NCBI GenBank assembly: GCA_039182865.1 | Contig: JBCDBX010000001.1 | Location: forward strand, 2,239-66,238 | Direction of reading: 5' to 3' | Origin: Pseudomonadota bacterium | GTDB taxonomy: Bacteria; Pseudomonadota; Gammaproteobacteria; UBA4575 | DNA: 64,000 bases | Made by a program: the position numbers and the translations under genes | Part shown: piece by piece, positions 1,691 to 33,159 of the stretch | How positions within the stretch are numbered: position 1 is the stretch's first letter | Layout of the letters: every line of letters begins with the position of its first letter | Notes under the pieces: generated by a model | The model's database searches: none | Seen by the model: the letters and a program-made list of their open reading frames with translations, nothing else | What the model was told of the DNA's origin: nothing

Positions 1691-2383
1691 TTACTGAGCA
1701 GTAAAATACATATCACCATAATTTGCACTTGCACTTAGGCCAGTATTATCTGCATCAGTCATTACTGCTACACCATTAATTTCTTTTACATCAAAACCAA
1801 GATATTTTTTAATATCTTCATAGACATTAACTTTTTCCGTAAACCAAACTTGATGAGAATCTTCGCTTGATTTGATAGGGATCATGACTGCATTTTTTGT
1901 AAAAGCATTTGGCCAACTCTCATCAGGACTGTTATTACTTGACCAAATATAGTTTAACGCATAAGTATTCCAGGGAAATGCGCCACGCTTCATTACAACA
2001 TATACACGTGCCACATAATCATCACCTAATTTAGTCTCCTCATTCAGAGAGTTGTATTTTGAATTAGCCTTCCATGACCAATTCAGATAGGGATACTCTT
2101 GGATATTCACTTTCACTTTTTTATAAAAAGCCGAAGCTGATTGATTTGCCTCAGCTTGTAATGAGATTACGCCATCTTCATCTGAAAGTATGTACTGTGT
2201 ATTTCCTTCAAAGGATCTTGAATTCCAATCCATCAAATCATTTCCAGAAAAATTTCCAACAATAATTTTGTCATTATGTTTACTTGTACTACTAGCAGTT
2301 GGGGAAAAAATAAACAGAACCACAGCTACCAATAAGTAATAAATAAAGGCTTTCAAATATTTTTGCATTAATACTCCACTCAT
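1691..2383 (-). CDS. Secreted protein, DUF3047-like
   Basis: N-terminal signal peptide (LLVAVVLFIFSPTASS). A LNWSWKA segment resembles the DUF3047 LsWrWk motif. The family assignment is from memory only. Confidence 0.4.
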   Translation of the reverse strand: MSGVLMQKYLKAFIYYLLVAVVLFIFSPTASSTSKHNDKIIVGNFSGNDLMDWNSRSFEGNTQYILSDEDGVISLQAEANQSASAFYKKVKVNIQEYPYLNWSWKANSKYNSLNEETKLGDDYVARVYVVMKRGAFPWNTYALNYIWSSNNSPDESWPNAFTKNAVMIPIKSSEDSHQVWFTEKVNVYEDIKKYLGFDVKEINGVAVMTDADNTGLSASANYGDMYFTAQ

Positions 2384-2637: not shown

Positions 2638-3396
2638 ATGCGAAAAACTATTTTTGCGCTGCTAGCATTGGCAGCATTATTAATAAGCACTGCCCAAGCG
2701 GCTACAACCCGGATTTATGATGTTACTTCTGCAGATGGTTCAGGCTCATCACATAGCCTTTGGTTTGCACCTCCAGGTGTACCAGGCTTAGGCCAAAACT
2801 TTCGATTTGATCCACCTTATTTACCTACAGGTGTTGGCACATTAGTTCTTGACGACATGGCAGAAACAGGCAAGCTAACCGGCAATGCTTTACATCCAAG
2901 CGAAGTAGGCACTGGTTGGATCATTGAATTCAACTATGACAAAAACTTCCCAGCCCCCTATGATCCGCCACAGTTTAAATCTGAAAATGGATCTGCTCCA
3001 GGCGCAGATATTGAATATTGGAACTTCTCAGGTGGCACATTGACTGGTGTCGGTTTGCTTGATGGCATCACTTTGGGTGTTTCATTATTGCCTGCGGATG
3101 GAAAATTTAACTTTCAAATTAGTTCAAGCATAGATGGTGTTAAACCAAGTGCTAACAATAAAAATACTAATTTTGGTGGCGCACATTGGGGTAAAGTCAC
3201 AAATGTAGAGATTAATCAGGACATTTGTTTTCAAAGCGCCTACTGCGAGGAAAATTTTGATGGTTTAAAAGAACTTCGCGGTCGACAAATTGATATCAAT
3301 GTGGATCTCACACCTGTCCCTGTTCCTGCTCCTCTTGCATTAATGCTTTCTGGCATTGCAGGTATGCTTGGATTTAGCCGTCGTAATAAGAGCTAA
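2638..3396 (+). CDS. Secreted protein with a C-terminal PEP-CTERM/VPLPA-CTERM-type sorting signal
   Basis: Signal peptide ending AQA-A. The C-terminus reads TPVPVPAP-LALMLSGIAGMLGF-SRRNKS, which is a Pro-rich motif, then a TM helix, then a basic tail. This is the architecture of exosortase-dependent sorting signals. Good RBS (AAAGGAAAGAG). Confidence 0.55.
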   Translation: MRKTIFALLALAALLISTAQAATTRIYDVTSADGSGSSHSLWFAPPGVPGLGQNFRFDPPYLPTGVGTLVLDDMAETGKLTGNALHPSEVGTGWIIEFNYDKNFPAPYDPPQFKSENGSAPGADIEYWNFSGGTLTGVGLLDGITLGVSLLPADGKFNFQISSSIDGVKPSANNKNTNFGGAHWGKVTNVEINQDICFQSAYCEENFDGLKELRGRQIDINVDLTPVPVPAPLALMLSGIAGMLGFSRRNKS

Positions 3397-3415: not shown

Positions 3416-3455
3416 AAAAAAAAGCAGAGTATTTACTCTGCTTTTTTGTTTTTAG
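3416..3455. terminator. Bidirectional rho-independent terminator between convergent genes
   Basis: Perfect 8-bp stem GCAGAGTA/TACTCTGC (3424-3441), with an A-run on the left and a T6 run on the right. Confidence 0.7.
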
Positions 3456-3474: not shown

Positions 3475-4134
3475 TTAATCTGAATTGATTTTCTGAGGTT
3501 TCCAACCGAGCTTCCAGTGGTTTTTCTTAACAATGACTGGTGGTCGACCATTATCGTAAAACCAGGAATCCACAACAAATTCTTCGTCTGATTCTTTTTC
3601 TTTAATTAGCACTGCAGTATGTGGATAACCAGCGGAGAAGCCTACTCGAGAAATGTAACCTTCTATAGTGTGCCATTTAAGCATATTTTCGCTCTCAAGT
3701 ATGCGCAAATAAGTATATGTATTTGATGATTCATCTATGCAGTCCATCTGATTGCTCTTAGATCTTTCTAACCCAAAGAGACTTGCATATGAACCCCCAA
3801 CATCAAACTGTGTATCCGTCATTCTACCCACTATAATTTCAAATTGGGCAACATATTCTGCAATTTGAATTCTTTCATGAGCAGCACTTAAATTGTTTAA
3901 CTCCCAATCAGAGGTCAACTTCTTCCATTCATTTCCAGTTAACGAGACTGATTGAATTTGCCGACAACCATGCTGATAACAAATCTTAAACTCCTCATAA
4001 CTGACTTCATTGGAAGATAAATCTAATGAGCTGTTTTGATAGCGCACAAAATTGGGCGACTTTGAAAAGACCAAAAAAGGAAAGCATAAAAGTAAAATAC
4101 TTAAAACTATGTATCGAATATTTAGTTTAAACAC
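3475..4134 (-). CDS. Periplasmic BTLCP-family (LapG-like, transglutaminase-like) cysteine protease
   Basis: Signal peptide. Cys-His-Asp triad in the characteristic BTLCP contexts and spacing: MDCIDES (versus GDCEDYA), PHTAVL (versus HAVL), VVDSW. The C-H gap is about 40 aa and the H-D gap is 16 aa. Confidence 0.55.
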   Translation of the reverse strand: MFKLNIRYIVLSILLLCFPFLVFSKSPNFVRYQNSSLDLSSNEVSYEEFKICYQHGCRQIQSVSLTGNEWKKLTSDWELNNLSAAHERIQIAEYVAQFEIIVGRMTDTQFDVGGSYASLFGLERSKSNQMDCIDESSNTYTYLRILESENMLKWHTIEGYISRVGFSAGYPHTAVLIKEKESDEEFVVDSWFYDNGRPPVIVKKNHWKLGWKPQKINSD

Positions 4135-4142
4135 TGAAATGA

Positions 4143-5135
4143 TTAATCAAGTAAATGAAGTTTTAAAAACTCTTTTGTATCAAGCAAGGCTTGGCTTGCC
4201 GCTTGCTTATTATATCCCGCCTTACCTTTGTATTGACTGCAGGCCTCTAGCACCTCAGCGACATTATCTTGGTAGATAGGCTTATTATTATAGATTTCAT
4301 AGAAATTATTTCGACTTTTTTCTTCAATCTTACAATTCGCAGGAACTTGAGCAGTGAGCGAAATTGGAAATGGGACTCTCGACAAAATAGGGTGATCAAA
4401 TGCATGTCGCGCTTTAGAATATTCTTTAATAGTAAATGTTGACTGATCTGCTTGACTAAAATCTTCAGTAATTAATTCTCTACAAGCCTTTAATGGTGTC
4501 ACAATATCTTTAGCTCCTGCCTGTATCAATACTGGTGCTCCTGTAGTCTTCATATTATTTATCGCCATTCCACACCATGGATAATAAGCAATATGTGCAT
4601 TAAATCTTAAATCAGTGTTCGTTGAAGCTGCTCTAACTTGATCAATGACTGAGTACATAGCAACAATCCCACCTTTAGAAAACCCCATAACTGCTACTTT
4701 GTTTTCATCAAACTCTGGATTAGTAGAAATATATTCGAGAGTTGCATAGGCATCTTTAATCATAGAGGCACTTGATACTAGCGTTTGATCACGTGATGTC
4801 TTACCTACATCACGTGGAGAAAAGCTATCAATTGCTAATGTAGCAATCCCCATATCTTTAAATTCGTTAGCGTATAGCCACTCTTGACTGCTTAAGCCCC
4901 ATGAACTATGCAATAGAACAATCGCAGGGTATGGAGGAGAGAAATACTGAGGATTAGGTAAGGTCAGCAATATATCGATCTCGCGTTCACTGACTGCATC
5001 ACCATAAAGCAATTGATCAATAAACTTGTAATCATGACTAACCACAGTAAAGATAGCATCGCTTTGCTCTTTAATTGGAGAACTACAAGCCACAATCAAC
5101 AATACGATGGATAATATCAGTATTCGAAAGCTCAT
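4143..5135 (-). CDS. Lipoprotein alpha/beta-hydrolase (dienelactone hydrolase / S9-like)
   Basis: Lipobox LLIVAC. Nucleophile elbow GFSKGG. His near the C-terminus (ARHAFDHP). The start codon is 2 nt after the epmA stop. Confidence 0.6.
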   Translation of the reverse strand: MSFRILILSIVLLIVACSSPIKEQSDAIFTVVSHDYKFIDQLLYGDAVSEREIDILLTLPNPQYFSPPYPAIVLLHSSWGLSSQEWLYANEFKDMGIATLAIDSFSPRDVGKTSRDQTLVSSASMIKDAYATLEYISTNPEFDENKVAVMGFSKGGIVAMYSVIDQVRAASTNTDLRFNAHIAYYPWCGMAINNMKTTGAPVLIQAGAKDIVTPLKACRELITEDFSQADQSTFTIKEYSKARHAFDHPILSRVPFPISLTAQVPANCKIEEKSRNNFYEIYNNKPIYQDNVAEVLEACSQYKGKAGYNKQAASQALLDTKEFLKLHLLD

Positions 5136-5137
5136 AT

Positions 5138-6076
5138 CTAAAAACTAAAACTAATTGAATCTTTTATATCAGACGAATTGATTATTAACATTAATACGCG
5201 ATCTAAACCCACAGCCACACCCGCACAATCAGGCAAGCCATGTTGTTGCGCTACAATGAGCCGATAATCTACGTCAATTTCGGGAAGCTTACGTTGCTTT
5301 CTAATATCCAGATCTGTTTGAAAACGATCAAGCTGTTCTTTATGATCCGTGAGCTCAACATAGCCATTCGCCAGTTCTAATTCACCACAAAAGATTTCAA
5401 ATCGCTCAGCTGTTTGCGGATTGTCTTGAGTTATTTTTGCAAGAACCGCCTGTGATGAAGGATATTGATATACTATTGTTAGTGAATTTTTATCAAAAGT
5501 TTTTGTAACACAACGTGTAAACACAAAATCTAATAATTGATCTTTAGAAAAAGACTGTTGGATTTGCAGACCATGTTCGGATGCAATAGATTTAAGTTTC
5601 TCATGAGTAAGCTCAGATAAACTTAAATCCATTACCTGCATACATGCTTGCTCATAGCTAATATAGCTGGGCTGATCTAACCTTGTAACAAGCAAACAGA
5701 TTAAGTTTGCTGCTTCTTGCATAATTTCCTGCAAAGAAAAAGTTTTTCGATACCACTCAAGCATGGTGAATTCAGGATTATGCAAAGGACCTTTTTCACT
5801 TTTACGAAATGATTTGCAGATTTGATAAATATCGGGACTTCCTGATGCAATTAAACGCTTCATAGCATATTCAGGTGAGGTTTGCAGATAATACTTTTCA
5901 TCACCTATCATCACCTCAAATGATTCGATATTGGGGTCCGTTACTGTATATCTATCAAGCAAAGGAGTTTCGACTTCTAGCAGGCCACGTTCAAGAAAAA
6001 ACTCGCGCACTTGCATAAACATTTGAGCTCGCAGCCTGAGGGTTTCTAATGTGGTATTCGGCTGCCAATTTTGCAT
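5138..6076 (-). CDS. epmA: EF-P--(R)-beta-lysine ligase (truncated class II LysRS paralog)
   Basis: 312 aa. MQNWQPNTTLETLRLRAQM...FLERGLLEVETPLL matches GenX/PoxA throughout. Confidence 0.9.
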   Translation of the reverse strand: MQNWQPNTTLETLRLRAQMFMQVREFFLERGLLEVETPLLDRYTVTDPNIESFEVMIGDEKYYLQTSPEYAMKRLIASGSPDIYQICKSFRKSEKGPLHNPEFTMLEWYRKTFSLQEIMQEAANLICLLVTRLDQPSYISYEQACMQVMDLSLSELTHEKLKSIASEHGLQIQQSFSKDQLLDFVFTRCVTKTFDKNSLTIVYQYPSSQAVLAKITQDNPQTAERFEIFCGELELANGYVELTDHKEQLDRFQTDLDIRKQRKLPEIDVDYRLIVAQQHGLPDCAGVAVGLDRVLMLIINSSDIKDSISFSF

Positions 6077-7960: not shown

Positions 7961-9706
7961 ATGCTTCTGGATATGCAAATCTATATACCAAGTCAGGACC
8001 CGTTGGCTCATGAAGATTTCGCATTGACACCTCGAAAAGTTAAAAAGTGGATTAAGTCAGCATCACTTGCTGATCCGCAAAAAGCAAGCACGGAATTAAT
8101 CGAACTTATCTCCAATAGCAACCGTGTTACATTCCCAAGCAAGCAGCGCTACGCCTCATTAGAAATATTGGCGCCAATTTGTAAATCAATTTTAGCCCAA
8201 CATAGTAAATCTTTATCTCATCAGACGTTTCCTCTATCAGGAAATGCCGTAAAAAGTCATAATTTTCAGCAATCAATTTTAGCTGAAATAGCAATCTCTT
8301 ATAAGATTATTATTGCTGAAGCTGTGCATGGTGATAACAGTCTCAATCAGAAGAAATTACTATTATCACTTTTCAAGGCTATTTGTTGTTTAAAACAAGA
8401 ATATGTTTCGAGCTTACTAACATATCAAAAAATCTCAGAAAACATCTGGCCTGATATCTGTCAGCTCTATCGTGTTGCAGAATTTTATGATTTTCAAAAT
8501 CGTGTTGTTCAAGATAGAGAGCTTTCAGAAAAAACAACAATCGCAAATATTTTTAAGTATCTATGCTCACTGACCATGATTTCATTCAATAAACTAAGGC
8601 AAGGTGAGGCAAGTGCTATTATAAAATTTTTAAACAAAAACTGTCAGCTAATCGAAATTCAAAGTAATCTTGAGACATTTACTGAAGATTATATTTATCT
8701 TGCTAATTTAGCGACTGGCAAACCGCCTTCGTACTACATACCTAGAGAAGTTCCCATATCTTCAGAGAACCGTTTTGTGCTTTATTCTTTATTCATAAAT
8801 AAACTTTCTGAATTAAAGCAAAAGTATGTGCAGTCTCATTCATACTATCTACACTCTGATGATGAGATTGATCCAGATCTTGCCAATCGTTTAATCGAAA
8901 TGATAGGCAAGCCTACACAAAGAAGCAAAAAGCGCCTAAAAAGCAATCAAAAAGTTAAAGCTATTATTTGCCTAGATAAGATTTTAGAGACTTTAAATCC
9001 TGAACAAGATGAGCCTGATCCCTTAGCTGAAGATTCTTATATTCTACATAGCATGGCCTTGTTACCGATTGAAGAAAAATCAAAAATTATTTTTGATGAA
9101 TCAAAGACAGGAGACAGTCAATGTCTAGATATCTCTCAAAATCTTTCAGATATTTGGGAACATGACTCAGAATTGAATTCTAAGAATGAACAACCTGAAG
9201 AAATAAAAAATAATGATGCCAATGAAACGGGAACCTGGAAAATCGATAACTATAGCTCAGGTGGGTTTTGCCTCACTTATGACACAGATGGAAGTTGCAA
9301 AACACGCGTTGGTGAAATCATCGCTATTCGTGACACAAACAACGCAGATCAAACCATTCAATGGTTAACCGGAACAATTCGGTGGATGCAATGTGATCCA
9401 CAGCATTCAAACCGAATTGGCGTTGAACTATTTGGTGCTGAATGCGCATTTATTACAATACATACTAATAATAATGATTCGACTAAATATCATGGTCTTT
9501 TACTTAAGAAAATTGAAGATAATGAAAAGAAATTTAGCTTGTTAGTCCCTACTCGAGTAAGTTTTGATTCAAATGACATAGTTATACGTGGCAAGAAAAG
9601 TGAACGTAGTGCGATTCTAGGACAAACACTTGAAAAGACTAGCTCTTTTACACATTTTGAAATACTTGAAATAGCGACACAGAATCAAGTTTTAAATAAT
9701 TTATAA
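7961..9706 (+). CDS. 581-aa protein: an approximately 420-aa N-terminal region of unknown function plus a C-terminal non-canonical PilZ domain
   Basis: Residues about 425-500 read KIDNYSSGGFCL ... RVGEIIAIRD ... GTIRWMQ ... RIGVELFG. This matches the PilZ (D/N)xSxxG motif and the beta-barrel core. No RxxxR sits at the canonical -20 to -30 position. The nearest is RSKKR, about 105 aa upstream. Confidence 0.55.
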   Translation: MLLDMQIYIPSQDPLAHEDFALTPRKVKKWIKSASLADPQKASTELIELISNSNRVTFPSKQRYASLEILAPICKSILAQHSKSLSHQTFPLSGNAVKSHNFQQSILAEIAISYKIIIAEAVHGDNSLNQKKLLLSLFKAICCLKQEYVSSLLTYQKISENIWPDICQLYRVAEFYDFQNRVVQDRELSEKTTIANIFKYLCSLTMISFNKLRQGEASAIIKFLNKNCQLIEIQSNLETFTEDYIYLANLATGKPPSYYIPREVPISSENRFVLYSLFINKLSELKQKYVQSHSYYLHSDDEIDPDLANRLIEMIGKPTQRSKKRLKSNQKVKAIICLDKILETLNPEQDEPDPLAEDSYILHSMALLPIEEKSKIIFDESKTGDSQCLDISQNLSDIWEHDSELNSKNEQPEEIKNNDANETGTWKIDNYSSGGFCLTYDTDGSCKTRVGEIIAIRDTNNADQTIQWLTGTIRWMQCDPQHSNRIGVELFGAECAFITIHTNNNDSTKYHGLLLKKIEDNEKKFSLLVPTRVSFDSNDIVIRGKKSERSAILGQTLEKTSSFTHFEILEIATQNQVLNNL

Positions 9707-9718
9707 GCAGTATGCAGT

Positions 9719-11794
9719 ATGGATGAAGTATTAAAATTATTAGTACTTAGCAATAATGCTAACAATGCAGATGATATTATCAGAACTGCCAAGTCTTCAG
9801 GGTTTGCAGTTCGTGATACTATTGTGTCATCCAAAGATGAGTTTTCTGACATATGCTCTTTTGTAGAACAATTCCATATTGCCATTATTTCTGATGACTT
9901 TGACCAGCTTAGCATTAATGAAGTTAGCTCTAGCCTCAAAAGTGATGAACATTATGTATCACTCATTGCACTCAGCAATAATATTGCAGAGACTCAAGCT
10001 GAATCGATGTCAAATGGAGCTGATGCCGTTATCCCTGCAGATGATAAATCACAGCTGACACATGCAATTACACAAATTGCAAAAACTGAATTATATATTC
10101 AGAATCTGCAATCCAAATCAGATGCATATGAGGATTTAAATCAACGCTACCAAAAAATTCTTAATATTTCGCAAGACGCTATTTGTTATATCCATGAAGG
10201 CTTGCACACCTATGTTAATAAATCCTACCTGAAATTATTTGGCATTGAGGATATGGAAGATGCAAGCGCTCTTTCGATTCTTGAACTTGTCAGCCCTGAG
10301 GATCATGATAACTTAAAAAATATTTTAAAAGACGTCCATAAAAATCAAAACTCAGGCGACACTAAGCTAAATTTTAAAACTCAAAATAAAACACAGATTC
10401 TTCAAGCAACTTATGACCCAGTACTTGTTGAAGGAGAAATTTGTGCACAATTTGTTATTCATTGGGAAATAGAAAGCTCTGAAGAGTTGCAGGAACAGAT
10501 TAGTTATATCTCTGAAAGAGATCTTGAGACTGGCTTCTTTCATAGAAAGTCTATCATCGATAAATTACAAGAAGTTTTAAAACCAGACCGCAGTGAATTA
10601 GTCACACACACATTTGTACAAATCGATATAGCAAACCTTGATTACATTCAAGACCAACAAGGCGTTATTGCATTGGACCAGCTTAGCACACATATTGCGG
10701 ATACACTTCAGTCATCTTGTGATGGTGAAGATCTGCTAGCAAAAATCACGGACAAGTCTTATGGCATCCTCACGGATATTACTGACAGTGAGCAGTTAAT
10801 TTTATTTGGAGAGAAATTACGTGAGAGATTTGATGATAATCCTTTAAAAGTTAATGGCATCACCATCGAGCCTAAATTTTATATTGGTGCTGTTCATTTA
10901 GATGAAATGATCGAACAAGCCTCAGATGCGCTTGCTGCCTCTAAGCAGGCTTGTGACCACGCTAGCGAGCATGACCTTAATGAACTCTATTTATATCAAA
11001 GAGACCCTGCAACACTCACAGGAACAATGCTTGATCAAAAATGGGCAAATGAATTACAAGAAGCTATTGATGAGAATCGACTTAAACTTCAATTCCAACC
11101 GATTATTAGTACCAATAACGATAATATTGATCGCTATCAAGTTTATACTCAACTAATTAGTAGAGAAGGCACCAAAATTTCAGTTGCTGGGATTTTGCCC
11201 AGTATTGAACGCTCTGGTGTCTCTTCCATGTTTGATCGATGGGTCGTTGATTTATCATTGATCAAACTTGCCGAGCATACGCAACATAATCCGAATTCAC
11301 AGTTCTTTGTTAAGTTAACCGCAGGTGCGGTATCTGATGCTTCATTTATTCCATGGCTTAGCAAAAAGTGTACTAGTCGAGGCGTTGATCCTGAGAGAGT
11401 GATATTTGATTTGCGTGAAGATGTGGCTATCAATAATTTAAAAGAAACGAGATCATTCTCTACAGAACTCAAGAAACTTGGTTTCCAAATTGCAATTGAT
11501 TCATTCGGCATTGGGCAAGACCCCAGCAAAATACTGACCATGGTTCCTGCGGCTTATTTAAAACTAAGCTTTCAGTTAGTCTCTGGGATTAAAGACAATG
11601 ATGAGGAAAAAATTCAAGCCATCAGAAATATCTGCGAGGCCGCGAGTAATTCCGGTACCAAGATAGTAGCGCAGTTTGTAGAAAACGCAGAAGTCTTATC
11701 ACAATTATGGACAATGAATATTGACTATATAAGCGGTGATTTTTTCTGCAAAGTGGGTGCAAGCTTAGAGTACGACTTTTCAAGCGCTGCCTAG
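9719..11794 (+). CDS. FimX-like degenerate c-di-GMP protein: REC-like / PAS / GGDEF-like / EAL-like
   Basis: 691 aa. REC-like N-terminus with the acidic pair replaced (LLVLSNN). PAS (ICYIHEGLHTYVNKSYLKLFGIE). GGDEF fold starting ERDLETGFFHR, with the A-site GG(D/E)EF position reading TDKSYG. EAL fold (LQFQPIIS...) with EAL replaced by QVY and DDFGTG replaced by DSFGIG. The C-terminal (V)AEGVE and QGY positions read VAQFVE and SGDFF. Confidence 0.75.
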   Translation: MDEVLKLLVLSNNANNADDIIRTAKSSGFAVRDTIVSSKDEFSDICSFVEQFHIAIISDDFDQLSINEVSSSLKSDEHYVSLIALSNNIAETQAESMSNGADAVIPADDKSQLTHAITQIAKTELYIQNLQSKSDAYEDLNQRYQKILNISQDAICYIHEGLHTYVNKSYLKLFGIEDMEDASALSILELVSPEDHDNLKNILKDVHKNQNSGDTKLNFKTQNKTQILQATYDPVLVEGEICAQFVIHWEIESSEELQEQISYISERDLETGFFHRKSIIDKLQEVLKPDRSELVTHTFVQIDIANLDYIQDQQGVIALDQLSTHIADTLQSSCDGEDLLAKITDKSYGILTDITDSEQLILFGEKLRERFDDNPLKVNGITIEPKFYIGAVHLDEMIEQASDALAASKQACDHASEHDLNELYLYQRDPATLTGTMLDQKWANELQEAIDENRLKLQFQPIISTNNDNIDRYQVYTQLISREGTKISVAGILPSIERSGVSSMFDRWVVDLSLIKLAEHTQHNPNSQFFVKLTAGAVSDASFIPWLSKKCTSRGVDPERVIFDLREDVAINNLKETRSFSTELKKLGFQIAIDSFGIGQDPSKILTMVPAAYLKLSFQLVSGIKDNDEEKIQAIRNICEAASNSGTKIVAQFVENAEVLSQLWTMNIDYISGDFFCKVGASLEYDFSSAA

Positions 11795-31452: not shown

Positions 31453-33159
31453 ATGAAACTGCTACTTCCATTGTTACTAGTATCACTCTTATCGTCTGCT
31501 GCATTTGCCGACAAGAATAAGCACTCTACTAAAGAATTATTAGAAGAGGCAGAGCAGACTATGCAAAGCCCAGAAGTTTCACCTGTGCGAAGAATCGAAC
31601 CTAAATTCAACAAGAATAAAAATAAACAGCACAATATTATTTATCGGAATATTGATGGTAGTTTCAACAATATTATCGATGATCAAATGAATGTCACAGA
31701 TACACAATTGATACGAGTCGCTGATGAAACTTACGGTGATGGTATCAGTGCTATGGGAGGAACTGATCGACCAAACCCAAGAGCAATCAGTAATGCGGCG
31801 TTATCTCAGACAGAATTATCATTCGCAAGTACAGGGGCAAGTGATTTTTTATGGCAATGGGGTCAATTTTTGGATCATGATATTGATTTGACCGAGGGCG
31901 TACACCCTGCCGAAGAAGTCCCTATCTCCATTCCTGCTGGTGATATACATTTCGACCCAAATAATATGGGCAATGTCGTCTTAGCATTCAACCGTTCAAT
32001 ATATGATACAAATACGGGAACAGATTCCAGTAATCCGCGTCAGCAAAAAAATGAAATTACGGGTTGGATTGATGCTTCGAATGTATATGGCTCGGATGAT
32101 GAACGCGCTCAAGCTTTGCGCAGATTGGATGGTTCAGGAAAGCTAAAAACTAGCGATGGTCGCCTTCTACCATTTAATACTGATGGCTTAATTAATGCAG
32201 GCGGTCCTAGTGCTGAATTTTTCTTGGCAGGCGACCCTCGTGCGAATGAACAAATAGGCTTAACCGTCATGCATACTCTGTTCGTGCGAGAACATAACCG
32301 TCTTGCAAGAATAATCGCTAAAAAGAATCCATTTTACAGCGGCGAAAGAATTTATCAGACAGCTCGTCGAATCGTAGCGGCTCAAATGCAAGTCATCACT
32401 TACAATGAATTTTTACCGATACTACTTGGCAAAAATGCAATTCCTAAATATGAAGGCTATGATCCTAATATAGACGCACGTATTGCAAACGAATTTTCAA
32501 CAGCGGCGTACCGACTCGGCCATAGTTTGCTATCACCACAAATTCTACGTATATATAAAAAACGTAAAAATTTCGACAATAGTGAAATCTCTTTACGCGA
32601 AGCTTTCTTTGCACCATTTCTTCTGACCAAAAAGAATAACATTGGCTCTATATTGCGCGGCTTAGCTTCTCAACAGTGTCAAGAACTTGATGTGTTCGTT
32701 ATTGATGACGTACGTAATTTCTTGTTTGGTCAGCCCGGAAGCGGAGGCTTTGATCTTGCTTCATTAAACATTCAACGTGGGCGAGATCATGGTCTTGGAA
32801 GCTACAATCAAACACGTATTGCACTTGGTTTACCTGCTGCTACTTCATTTGAAGATATTTCTTCTGACCCTGACATCCAAGCTAGACTTTCCAATGCTTA
32901 CGACAACGTAGACTTAATCGACCTCTGGGTGGGGGGATTAGCTGAAGATAAAGTTGATGGCGCCATGGTCGGACCCGTATTTTATGAGATTCTTAGAGAT
33001 CAATTCATACGCTTACGTGACGGAGATCGATTTTGGTACGAAAACGATATGAGTAAGAAAGAAATAAGGAACATTAAGAAAACAACTTTAGCAAAAATAA
33101 TTCGGCGCAATACAGGAGTTGGCAGAGAATTACAAAACAATGTTTTCTTGGTTAAGTAA
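31453..33159 (+). CDS. Secreted animal-type heme peroxidase (peroxidase-cyclooxygenase superfamily)
   Basis: Signal peptide. Distal His/Asp motif WGQFLDHDID. RANEQ heme-linking Glu motif. Proximal His in TLFVREHNRLA. Distal Arg in FSTAAYRLGHS. Confidence 0.8.
   Translation: MKLLLPLLLVSLLSSAAFADKNKHSTKELLEEAEQTMQSPEVSPVRRIEPKFNKNKNKQHNIIYRNIDGSFNNIIDDQMNVTDTQLIRVADETYGDGISAMGGTDRPNPRAISNAALSQTELSFASTGASDFLWQWGQFLDHDIDLTEGVHPAEEVPISIPAGDIHFDPNNMGNVVLAFNRSIYDTNTGTDSSNPRQQKNEITGWIDASNVYGSDDERAQALRRLDGSGKLKTSDGRLLPFNTDGLINAGGPSAEFFLAGDPRANEQIGLTVMHTLFVREHNRLARIIAKKNPFYSGERIYQTARRIVAAQMQVITYNEFLPILLGKNAIPKYEGYDPNIDARIANEFSTAAYRLGHSLLSPQILRIYKKRKNFDNSEISLREAFFAPFLLTKKNNIGSILRGLASQQCQELDVFVIDDVRNFLFGQPGSGGFDLASLNIQRGRDHGLGSYNQTRIALGLPAATSFEDISSDPDIQARLSNAYDNVDLIDLWVGGLAEDKVDGAMVGPVFYEILRDQFIRLRDGDRFWYENDMSKKEIRNIKKTTLAKIIRRNTGVGRELQNNVFLVK

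Follow-up and report, generated by a model that had tools for sequence, protein, structure and literature searches.

An unannotated family of exported Cys-His-Asp proteins in Proteobacteria that is distinct from LapG

We analysed a gene, here called X, at positions 3475 to 4134 of a 64,000-nucleotide (nt) stretch of contig JBCDBX010000001.1 from a gammaproteobacterium of the UBA4575 lineage; the whole stretch is referred to as the window. It was found that X belongs to a separate, widespread and unannotated proteobacterial family for which neither Pfam nor NCBIfam has a model. This is a solid new family in a known superfamily and no surprise for specialists. An earlier, sequence-only reading of the window had described X as an orphan LapG-like BTLCP periplasmic cysteine protease. 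That label is wrong, as the assignment is right at the level of the superfamily and fails at the level of the family.

A conserved family of exported proteins

X is a real gene and well beyond a chance open reading frame (ORF), because an exhaustive search with the family profile matched 1,234 cluster representatives (50% identity clusters) at E<=1e-3, a scan of species genomes showed relatives in at least 588, and the residues C132, H172 and D189 were kept in 144, 141 and 144, respectively, of 144 members. At E<=1e-30 the same profile search gave 388 representatives, and the lengths were 200-230 amino acids (aa) almost throughout. A word-indexed search with X returned 29 relatives only. The carriers are mainly Gamma-, Beta- and Alphaproteobacteria, together with one Nitrospiraceae genome, and among the cultured ones are Methylotenera versatilis, Methylophilus, Cycloclasticus and Kiloniella species, K. 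spongiae with WP_047762660.1. Every named member that was looked up was annotated as 'hypothetical' or 'uncharacterized', and no paper describing the family was found in literature searches.

Residue conservation was counted over 144 diverse members, which are about 25-65% identical to the window protein. Besides the two fully conserved triad residues, C52, E87, E99 and W207 were present in all of them, and C57, D131 and N138 in 143. H155 was found in 142 members, E135 in 141 and D134 in 135; T108 and D111 are conserved as well, and R88 is called invariant together with E87 and E99. The spacing of the triad in X is 40 residues from Cys to His and 17 from His to Asp. The three motifs on which the sequence-only reading had relied (DCID, HTAVL and VVDSW) were confirmed to lie at these residues, on the minus strand.

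From its sequence, X is predicted to be a Sec-exported periplasmic protein with a mature part of about 190 aa. The N-terminus was hydrophobic in 143 of the 144 members, and a rough regular expression for a lipobox-like motif matched 98. The NCBI record of the protein (MEM8843415.1, locus tag AAGB35_00040) has 190 aa and begins at an internal GTG (4047), so that it is without the signal peptide, and the Logan gene call has 219 aa and starts from the GTG at 4134. The 219-aa form agrees with the exported N-termini across the family.

X was above threshold for no Pfam or NCBIfam family. None of the 144 members matched PF06035, PF01841 (Transglut_core) or another papain-clan Pfam model, even at E<=1. 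A Cupin_5 match of the window protein (E 0.024) and matches to CATASP and ATP-grasp_4 in a few relatives were sub-threshold and inconsistent with the fold, and were dismissed. The analysis flags a sizeable unannotated family of exported Cys-His-Asp proteins in environmentally important Proteobacteria, among them methylotrophs, sulfur oxidisers and hydrocarbon degraders. The family merits a Pfam/NCBIfam model of its own, which would end both the 'hypothetical' labels and the confusion with BTLCP.

The structure of X was predicted twice with AlphaFold, first with 29 homologues (pLDDT 82.3, pTM 0.78) and then for the mature region with 147 sequences (pLDDT 92.4, pTM 0.89). The two models agree in which elements are present and in their order. 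A beta-hairpin (strands 48-53 and 59-63) carries C52 and C57, and two helices bearing E87, R88 and E99 come after it; the loop with T108 and D111 is modelled with lower confidence. C132 forms the N-terminus of helix 132-148, H172 opens strand 172-179 and D189 closes strand 185-189. By the model and the conservation together, X has a transglutaminase-core fold with the catalytic order Cys-His-Asp, and the predicted two-lobed transglutaminase/papain-like fold is well supported.

Proposed activity and its alternatives

The solved structures nearest to the model were protein-glutaminases, the fungal proteases MOA/PSL and the deamidases PMT and SseI, all with Z <=6.8. Foldseek against the PDB gave no match at E<=0.001, and searches of the PDB sequences with phmmer and with the family profile gave noise only. 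Judged from the model, X is about equally far from every characterised branch and not specifically LapG-like. Protein-glutaminase (Chryseobacterium proteolyticum, 2zk9 and 3a54; Flavobacterium, 8z3i) is 12-14% identical to X in an alignment of about 90 residues, and no sequence model links the two; it is a Bacteroidota enzyme with a cleavable pro-region, whereas X has a conserved N-lobe instead. The protease domain of the chimerolectins MOA/PSL (2iho, 3phz) is 8-12% identical to X; unlike X, these proteins are eukaryotic, are fused to a ricin-B lectin and have an active site that depends on dimerisation. The C3 domain of PMT (2ebf), SseI (4g29), Ceg10 (9b8d), RavJ (4xa9) and SpvD (5lq7) are deamidase or transglutaminase effectors with a papain-like core. 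They are cytosolic, host-targeted toxins delivered via secretion systems, whereas X is predicted to be periplasmic and is found in a housekeeping context in free-living Proteobacteria.

We consider it fairly likely that X is an active thiol enzyme which forms a thioester at C132 and hydrolyses an amide bond of an envelope protein, and that it represents a new family of the transglutaminase/papain-like superfamily which is constitutive and independent of LapD. The triad is invariant among proteins that share no more than 25-65% identity with the window protein, which speaks for catalysis. As both Gln deamidases and Ca2+-dependent proteases are among the closest structures, we commit to hydrolysis of a protein amide bond of either type. 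In the proposed mechanism the hairpin of the N-lobe would probably be stapled by a C52-C57 disulfide and be followed by the helices with E87, R88 and E99, and the C-lobe would present the nucleophile C132 at the helix N-terminus, with H172 and D189 on adjacent strands. C132 would form an acyl-thioester, after which the amide bond of the envelope protein would be hydrolysed. The bond could be a peptide bond, as for the proteases LapG and MOA, or the side-chain amide of Gln, as for the deamidases protein-glutaminase, PMT and SseI. X would act outside the gating by cyclic di-GMP (c-di-GMP) that is exerted through LapD-type receptors. X shares its transcription unit with housekeeping genes, namely efp-epmA in the window and nudJ/mnmA/hflD or proS elsewhere, and this would fit a constitutive role in envelope maintenance. 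In the subclade of the window, X is translationally coupled to a lipoprotein esterase of the dienelactone hydrolase (DLH) type, and the two proteins probably act on the same envelope substrate.

Acidic residues are concentrated near the nucleophile, with D131, D134, E135 and D111 all conserved. By analogy with LapG, DvhG and MOA (PMC4359373, PMC13090378, PMC8244254), a putative Ca2+/metal site formed by D111, D131, D134 and E135 is plausible. The targets of BTLCP enzymes can differ widely (PMC3032545, PMC4241560).

Several points weigh against this proposal. Catalysis in the family is deduced from sequence and model. Most neighbourhoods of X consist of housekeeping genes and are uninformative on function. 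The DLH partner is pseudogenised in one lineage with an intact X and is absent from most of the family, so the cooperation would be dispensable or clade-specific. Moreover, alpha/beta-hydrolases are common, and two independent pairings with X could be a coincidence.

A real though minor possibility is that X is not a protease and instead a protein-glutamine deamidase or transglutaminase, modifying Gln of a specific envelope protein or lipoprotein or crosslinking it to Lys. A broader version of the proposal, which we regard as doubtful, is that X founds an undescribed and widespread family of thiol enzymes of the envelope, most of them lipoproteins, with 1,200 or more clusters (50% identity) in at least 588 species of Proteobacteria and Nitrospirota. 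These enzymes would constitutively modify or process a conserved envelope protein, by Gln deamidation or by site-specific cleavage, and in some lineages they would be teamed with a lipoprotein alpha/beta-hydrolase in a module of two enzymes. The characterised periplasmic enzymes with a transglutaminase fold (LapG, DvhG and HvyA) each control a major surface property, either adhesion or capsule, and a new branch in housekeeping operons could indicate an unrecognised step in the maturation of envelope proteins.

It is unlikely that X is an acyl-transferase or a lipid-directed thiol enzyme of the NAT or LRAT type which, together with the adjacent esterase, remodels envelope lipids or lipoproteins. 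In its favour, about two thirds of the family would be lipoproteins by the rough lipobox test, and two unrelated lipoprotein alpha/beta-hydrolases adjoin X in two separate clades. However, the structural matches to NAT were weaker than those to deamidases and proteases, the hydrolase partner is missing from most loci and decayed in one, and genes of lipid metabolism do not recur near X.

Relationship to LapG and the Lap system

We also weighed whether X could be a diverged LapG/BTLCP orthologue, that is, a Ca2+-dependent periplasmic protease that frees a LapA-type adhesin, with LapD and the substrate encoded elsewhere in the genome. The two have much in common. The BTLCP/Peptidase_C93 proteins LapG, DvhG and HvyA are, like X, small, periplasmic and two-lobed with a transglutaminase-like fold, and they share the order Cys-His-Asp, an Asp directly before the nucleophile and acidic residues nearby. 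The spacing is also similar (40/17 in X and 35/17 in LapG, as counted on the P. fluorescens sequence). The Asp of X resembles the D-C-E calcium motif of BTLCP (D316/C317/E318 in DvhG, PMC13090378). BTLCP proteins without a LapD partner exist as well, since HvyA of Caulobacter is encoded away from LapD (PMC4241560), as X is.

At the level of the family, however, the profile searches did not recover this relationship. The sequence-only reading had named a search with the Peptidase_C93/DUF920 hidden Markov model (HMM) as the check on its claim. In this search (PF06035) the window protein was unmatched at E<=1, which refutes the claim on the HMM side; as a positive control, 120/120 listed LapG homologues carried PF06035. 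The X family profile did not recover LapG (4fgo, 4u65) from the PDB sequences at E<=10, and neither did the single X sequence. For a comparison of profiles, the LapG cores were taken from PDB 4u65 and 4fgo, PF06035 proteins were gathered from them and 31 were aligned. With hhalign, the 144-sequence X profile gave a probability of 0.4% and a score of 16.2 against these BTLCPs. This was no different from 30 column-shuffled BTLCP controls, which scored 11.1-23.2 with 7/30 at 16.2 or above. The best hhalign path does set C132, H172 and D189 opposite the Cys, His and Asp of BTLCP, but this carries no statistical weight.

Other observations point the same way. LapG was not the closest solved structure and ranked 12th-13th by structure. 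Of the 144 X-family members, 123 have I or V directly after the nucleophile Cys, and only 9 have the BTLCP-type E. The arrangement in which the Cys stands at a helix N-terminus and the His and Asp on the following strands fits X, but it is a trait of the whole superfamily and not specific to BTLCP. Thus the resemblance of the Cys-His-Asp contexts and spacing noted by the sequence-only reading holds for the order and, approximately, for the spacing, but not for family membership. Additionally, genuine PF06035 proteins coexist with the X family in Cycloclasticus, Sedimenticola, Methylomonas and Allochromatium, and X is therefore not simply the LapG of those lineages. Seven genuine PF06035 proteins (P0215, P0222, P0240, P0241, P0258, P0265 and P0287) are labelled 'sulfate adenylyltransferase' in NCBI/UniRef, apparently a propagated mis-annotation.

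Components of the Lap system were also looked for. The sequence-only reading had seen no LapD, LapA or type I secretion neighbours of X, and no LapD, type I secretion system or giant adhesin is encoded anywhere in the 64-kb window. The rest of the window contains housekeeping genes: the topoisomerase IV subunits, a UvrD-like helicase, a phage-integrase-family recombinase, lptF/G, pepA, valS, ispDF, eno, pyrG, dnaE, the lpx cluster, bamA and others. No recurring Lap cluster and no giant adhesin was found in 85 related X loci. All ORFs of at least 1,200 aa in the related loci are homologous to one another and about 1,600 aa long, and the representative that was scanned (L045) is an NAD-glutamate dehydrogenase. 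The GGDEF/EAL neighbours in these loci are of PAS, GAF or HAMP types and none of them matches the LapD periplasmic-domain model. The degenerate GGDEF-EAL protein of the window was likewise correctly said not to be a LapD; it is a PAS-GGDEF-EAL protein without HAMP and without the LapD periplasmic domain. The explanation as a LapG orthologue is largely refuted at the family level and we consider it very improbable. LapG-like motifs and spacing do not make a Lap system, and a tempting mis-annotation is hereby corrected.

A link of X to c-di-GMP was also rejected. GGDEF/EAL genes lie within 6 kb of X in 11 of 89 loci, which by a rough estimate (not computed) is about what is expected from their commonness, and they vary in position, strand and architecture. 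In three Sedimenticolaceae loci (L012, L020 and L025) a GGDEF-only protein of about 311 aa without LapD features is encoded 600-800 nt upstream of X, in the synteny GGDEF, rluE, X, mnmA. In the window, a 581-aa ORF (7961-9706, plus strand) without a Pfam match stops 12 nt before the PAS-GGDEF-EAL gene on the same strand, and it could encode a so far uncharacterised partner of the PAS-GGDEF-EAL protein.

A catalytically inert X that serves only for binding or as a scaffold and keeps the transglutaminase fold, like Rad4/XPC or protein 4.2, is hardly credible, as inactive proteins with this fold have lost the triad and the X family keeps Cys, His and Asp in 141-144 of 144 members at about 25-65% identity, which implies selection for catalysis.

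Gene neighbourhoods

In the window the gene order is efp, epmA, a DLH lipoprotein gene and X. As the sequence-only reading had held, X is the last cistron of an operon with epmA and a lipoprotein hydrolase: the genes are on the same strand, with gaps of 2 nt between epmA and the DLH gene and 8 nt between the DLH gene and X. The DLH partner belongs to the DLH family and has the lipobox LIVAC and the nucleophile elbow GFSKG. The positions of the features are given in Table 1.

Table 1. Positions of gene X, its predicted functional residues and nearby features in the window.
Feature	Position	Strand	Description
Gene X	3475..4134	-	219 aa, GTG start; exported protein, predicted transglutaminase/papain-like fold, unannotated family
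Sec signal peptide of X	4063..4134	-	Residues 1 to ~24, MFKLNIRYIVLSILLLCFPFLVFS; cleavage site approximate
C132 codon	3739..3741	-	Predicted nucleophile; motif Q-M-D-C-I-D-E-S-x-N (QMDCIDES)
H172 codon	3619..3621	-	Predicted general base; P-H-T-A-V (YPHTAVLI)
D189 codon	3568..3570	-	Predicted third triad member; V-V-D-S-W (FVVDSWF)
C52-x4-C57 pair	3964..3981	-	N-terminal beta-hairpin; probable periplasmic disulfide
DLH-family lipoprotein alpha/beta-hydrolase	4143..5135	-	Pfam DLH (PF01738) E=9e-17, 61.8 bits vs cutoff 21
epmA (elongation factor P (EF-P) lysine ligase)	5138..6076	-	TIGR00462 E=3e-105; same transcription unit as X
Bidirectional intrinsic terminator	3418..3447		13-bp stem with a T run on either strand; lies between the stops of X (3475) and of the convergent gene (3396)
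Convergent PEP-CTERM-like gene	2638-3396		Tail sub-threshold: Pfam 15.5 vs 20.7 bits; TIGR02595 15.7 vs 16
PAS-GGDEF-EAL protein	9719-11794		Without HAMP, without LapD periplasmic domain

The neighbours of X were clustered over 89 loci, and the commonest arrangement was a housekeeping synteny. mnmA follows X immediately in 21 loci (median gap 7 nt), hflD lies downstream within 6 kb in 22, and a NUDIX gene overlaps the start of X in 12, with rluE, icd and acn further out. proS is found downstream of X in 8 loci. The Methylophilaceae have the order TPM-domain genes, X, proS, and Cycloclasticus and Methylococcaceae have DUF4202, X, metallo-beta-lactamase. A GMC oxidoreductase gene comes after X in several Burkholderiales. 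These housekeeping neighbourhoods argue for constitutive expression of X, though they suggest no pathway. A functional link of X to epmA/EF-P was rejected, because epmA adjoins X only in this window, and the linkage looks incidental.

Throughout the subclade closest to the window, X is paired with a DLH-type lipoprotein hydrolase. The gap from the DLH lipoprotein gene to X downstream of it is 0-9 nt, both in the window and in four other loci (L001, L004, L010 and L011). The outer context of the pair is epmA in the window and bcp/acs...aat in the others. In a third outer context, ilvD/lexA (L002, L003 and L009), an intact X stands behind a DLH pseudogene. In L002/L003 (9006-10001; Thiotrichales metagenome-assembled genome (MAG) CAZWQM010000002.1) the nucleophile Ser is lost to a stop (GF*KGG), and there are also another stop and a frameshift; the pseudogene is identical in two assemblies, one from Logan and one from NCBI. 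The coupling of X to the lipoprotein esterase is real in the subclade of the window but dispensable. In L065 the same DLH gene is directly upstream of a split X frame (7995-8635), which in this MAG consists of two ORFs (118 aa and a C-terminal fragment), because of a pseudogenising frameshift or an error in the assembly.

In four alphaproteobacterial loci (L044, L062, L068 and L085) the order is xthA, X and then a lipoprotein alpha/beta-hydrolase about 50-100 nt downstream of X. The nucleophile elbow of this hydrolase is G-Y-S-G-G in two of the loci and G-Y-D-G-G or G-Y-D-S-G, with Asp for Ser, in the other two. No relationship to the DLH partner was detectable.

The sequence-only reading had also noted that X converges on a PEP-CTERM-type gene. 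This was borne out for the orientation, and the PEP-CTERM tail fell just below threshold. The neighbour was rejected as a substrate of X, since it has no homologue in any related locus. A DUF3047 protein (1691-2383, minus strand; Pfam E=5e-50) is encoded 1.1 kb from X in the window, and also 4-7 kb from X in L007 (5954-6649), L013 (6327-7037) and L014 (15288-15989), which are loci without the DLH gene. Common descent or a loose tie in function could account for the recurrence.

At 31453-33159 (plus strand) the window encodes a 568-aa protein that matches the animal haem peroxidase family (PF03098), a family uncommon in bacteria. Its gene is flanked by those for a LysE exporter and a glyoxalase-family protein.
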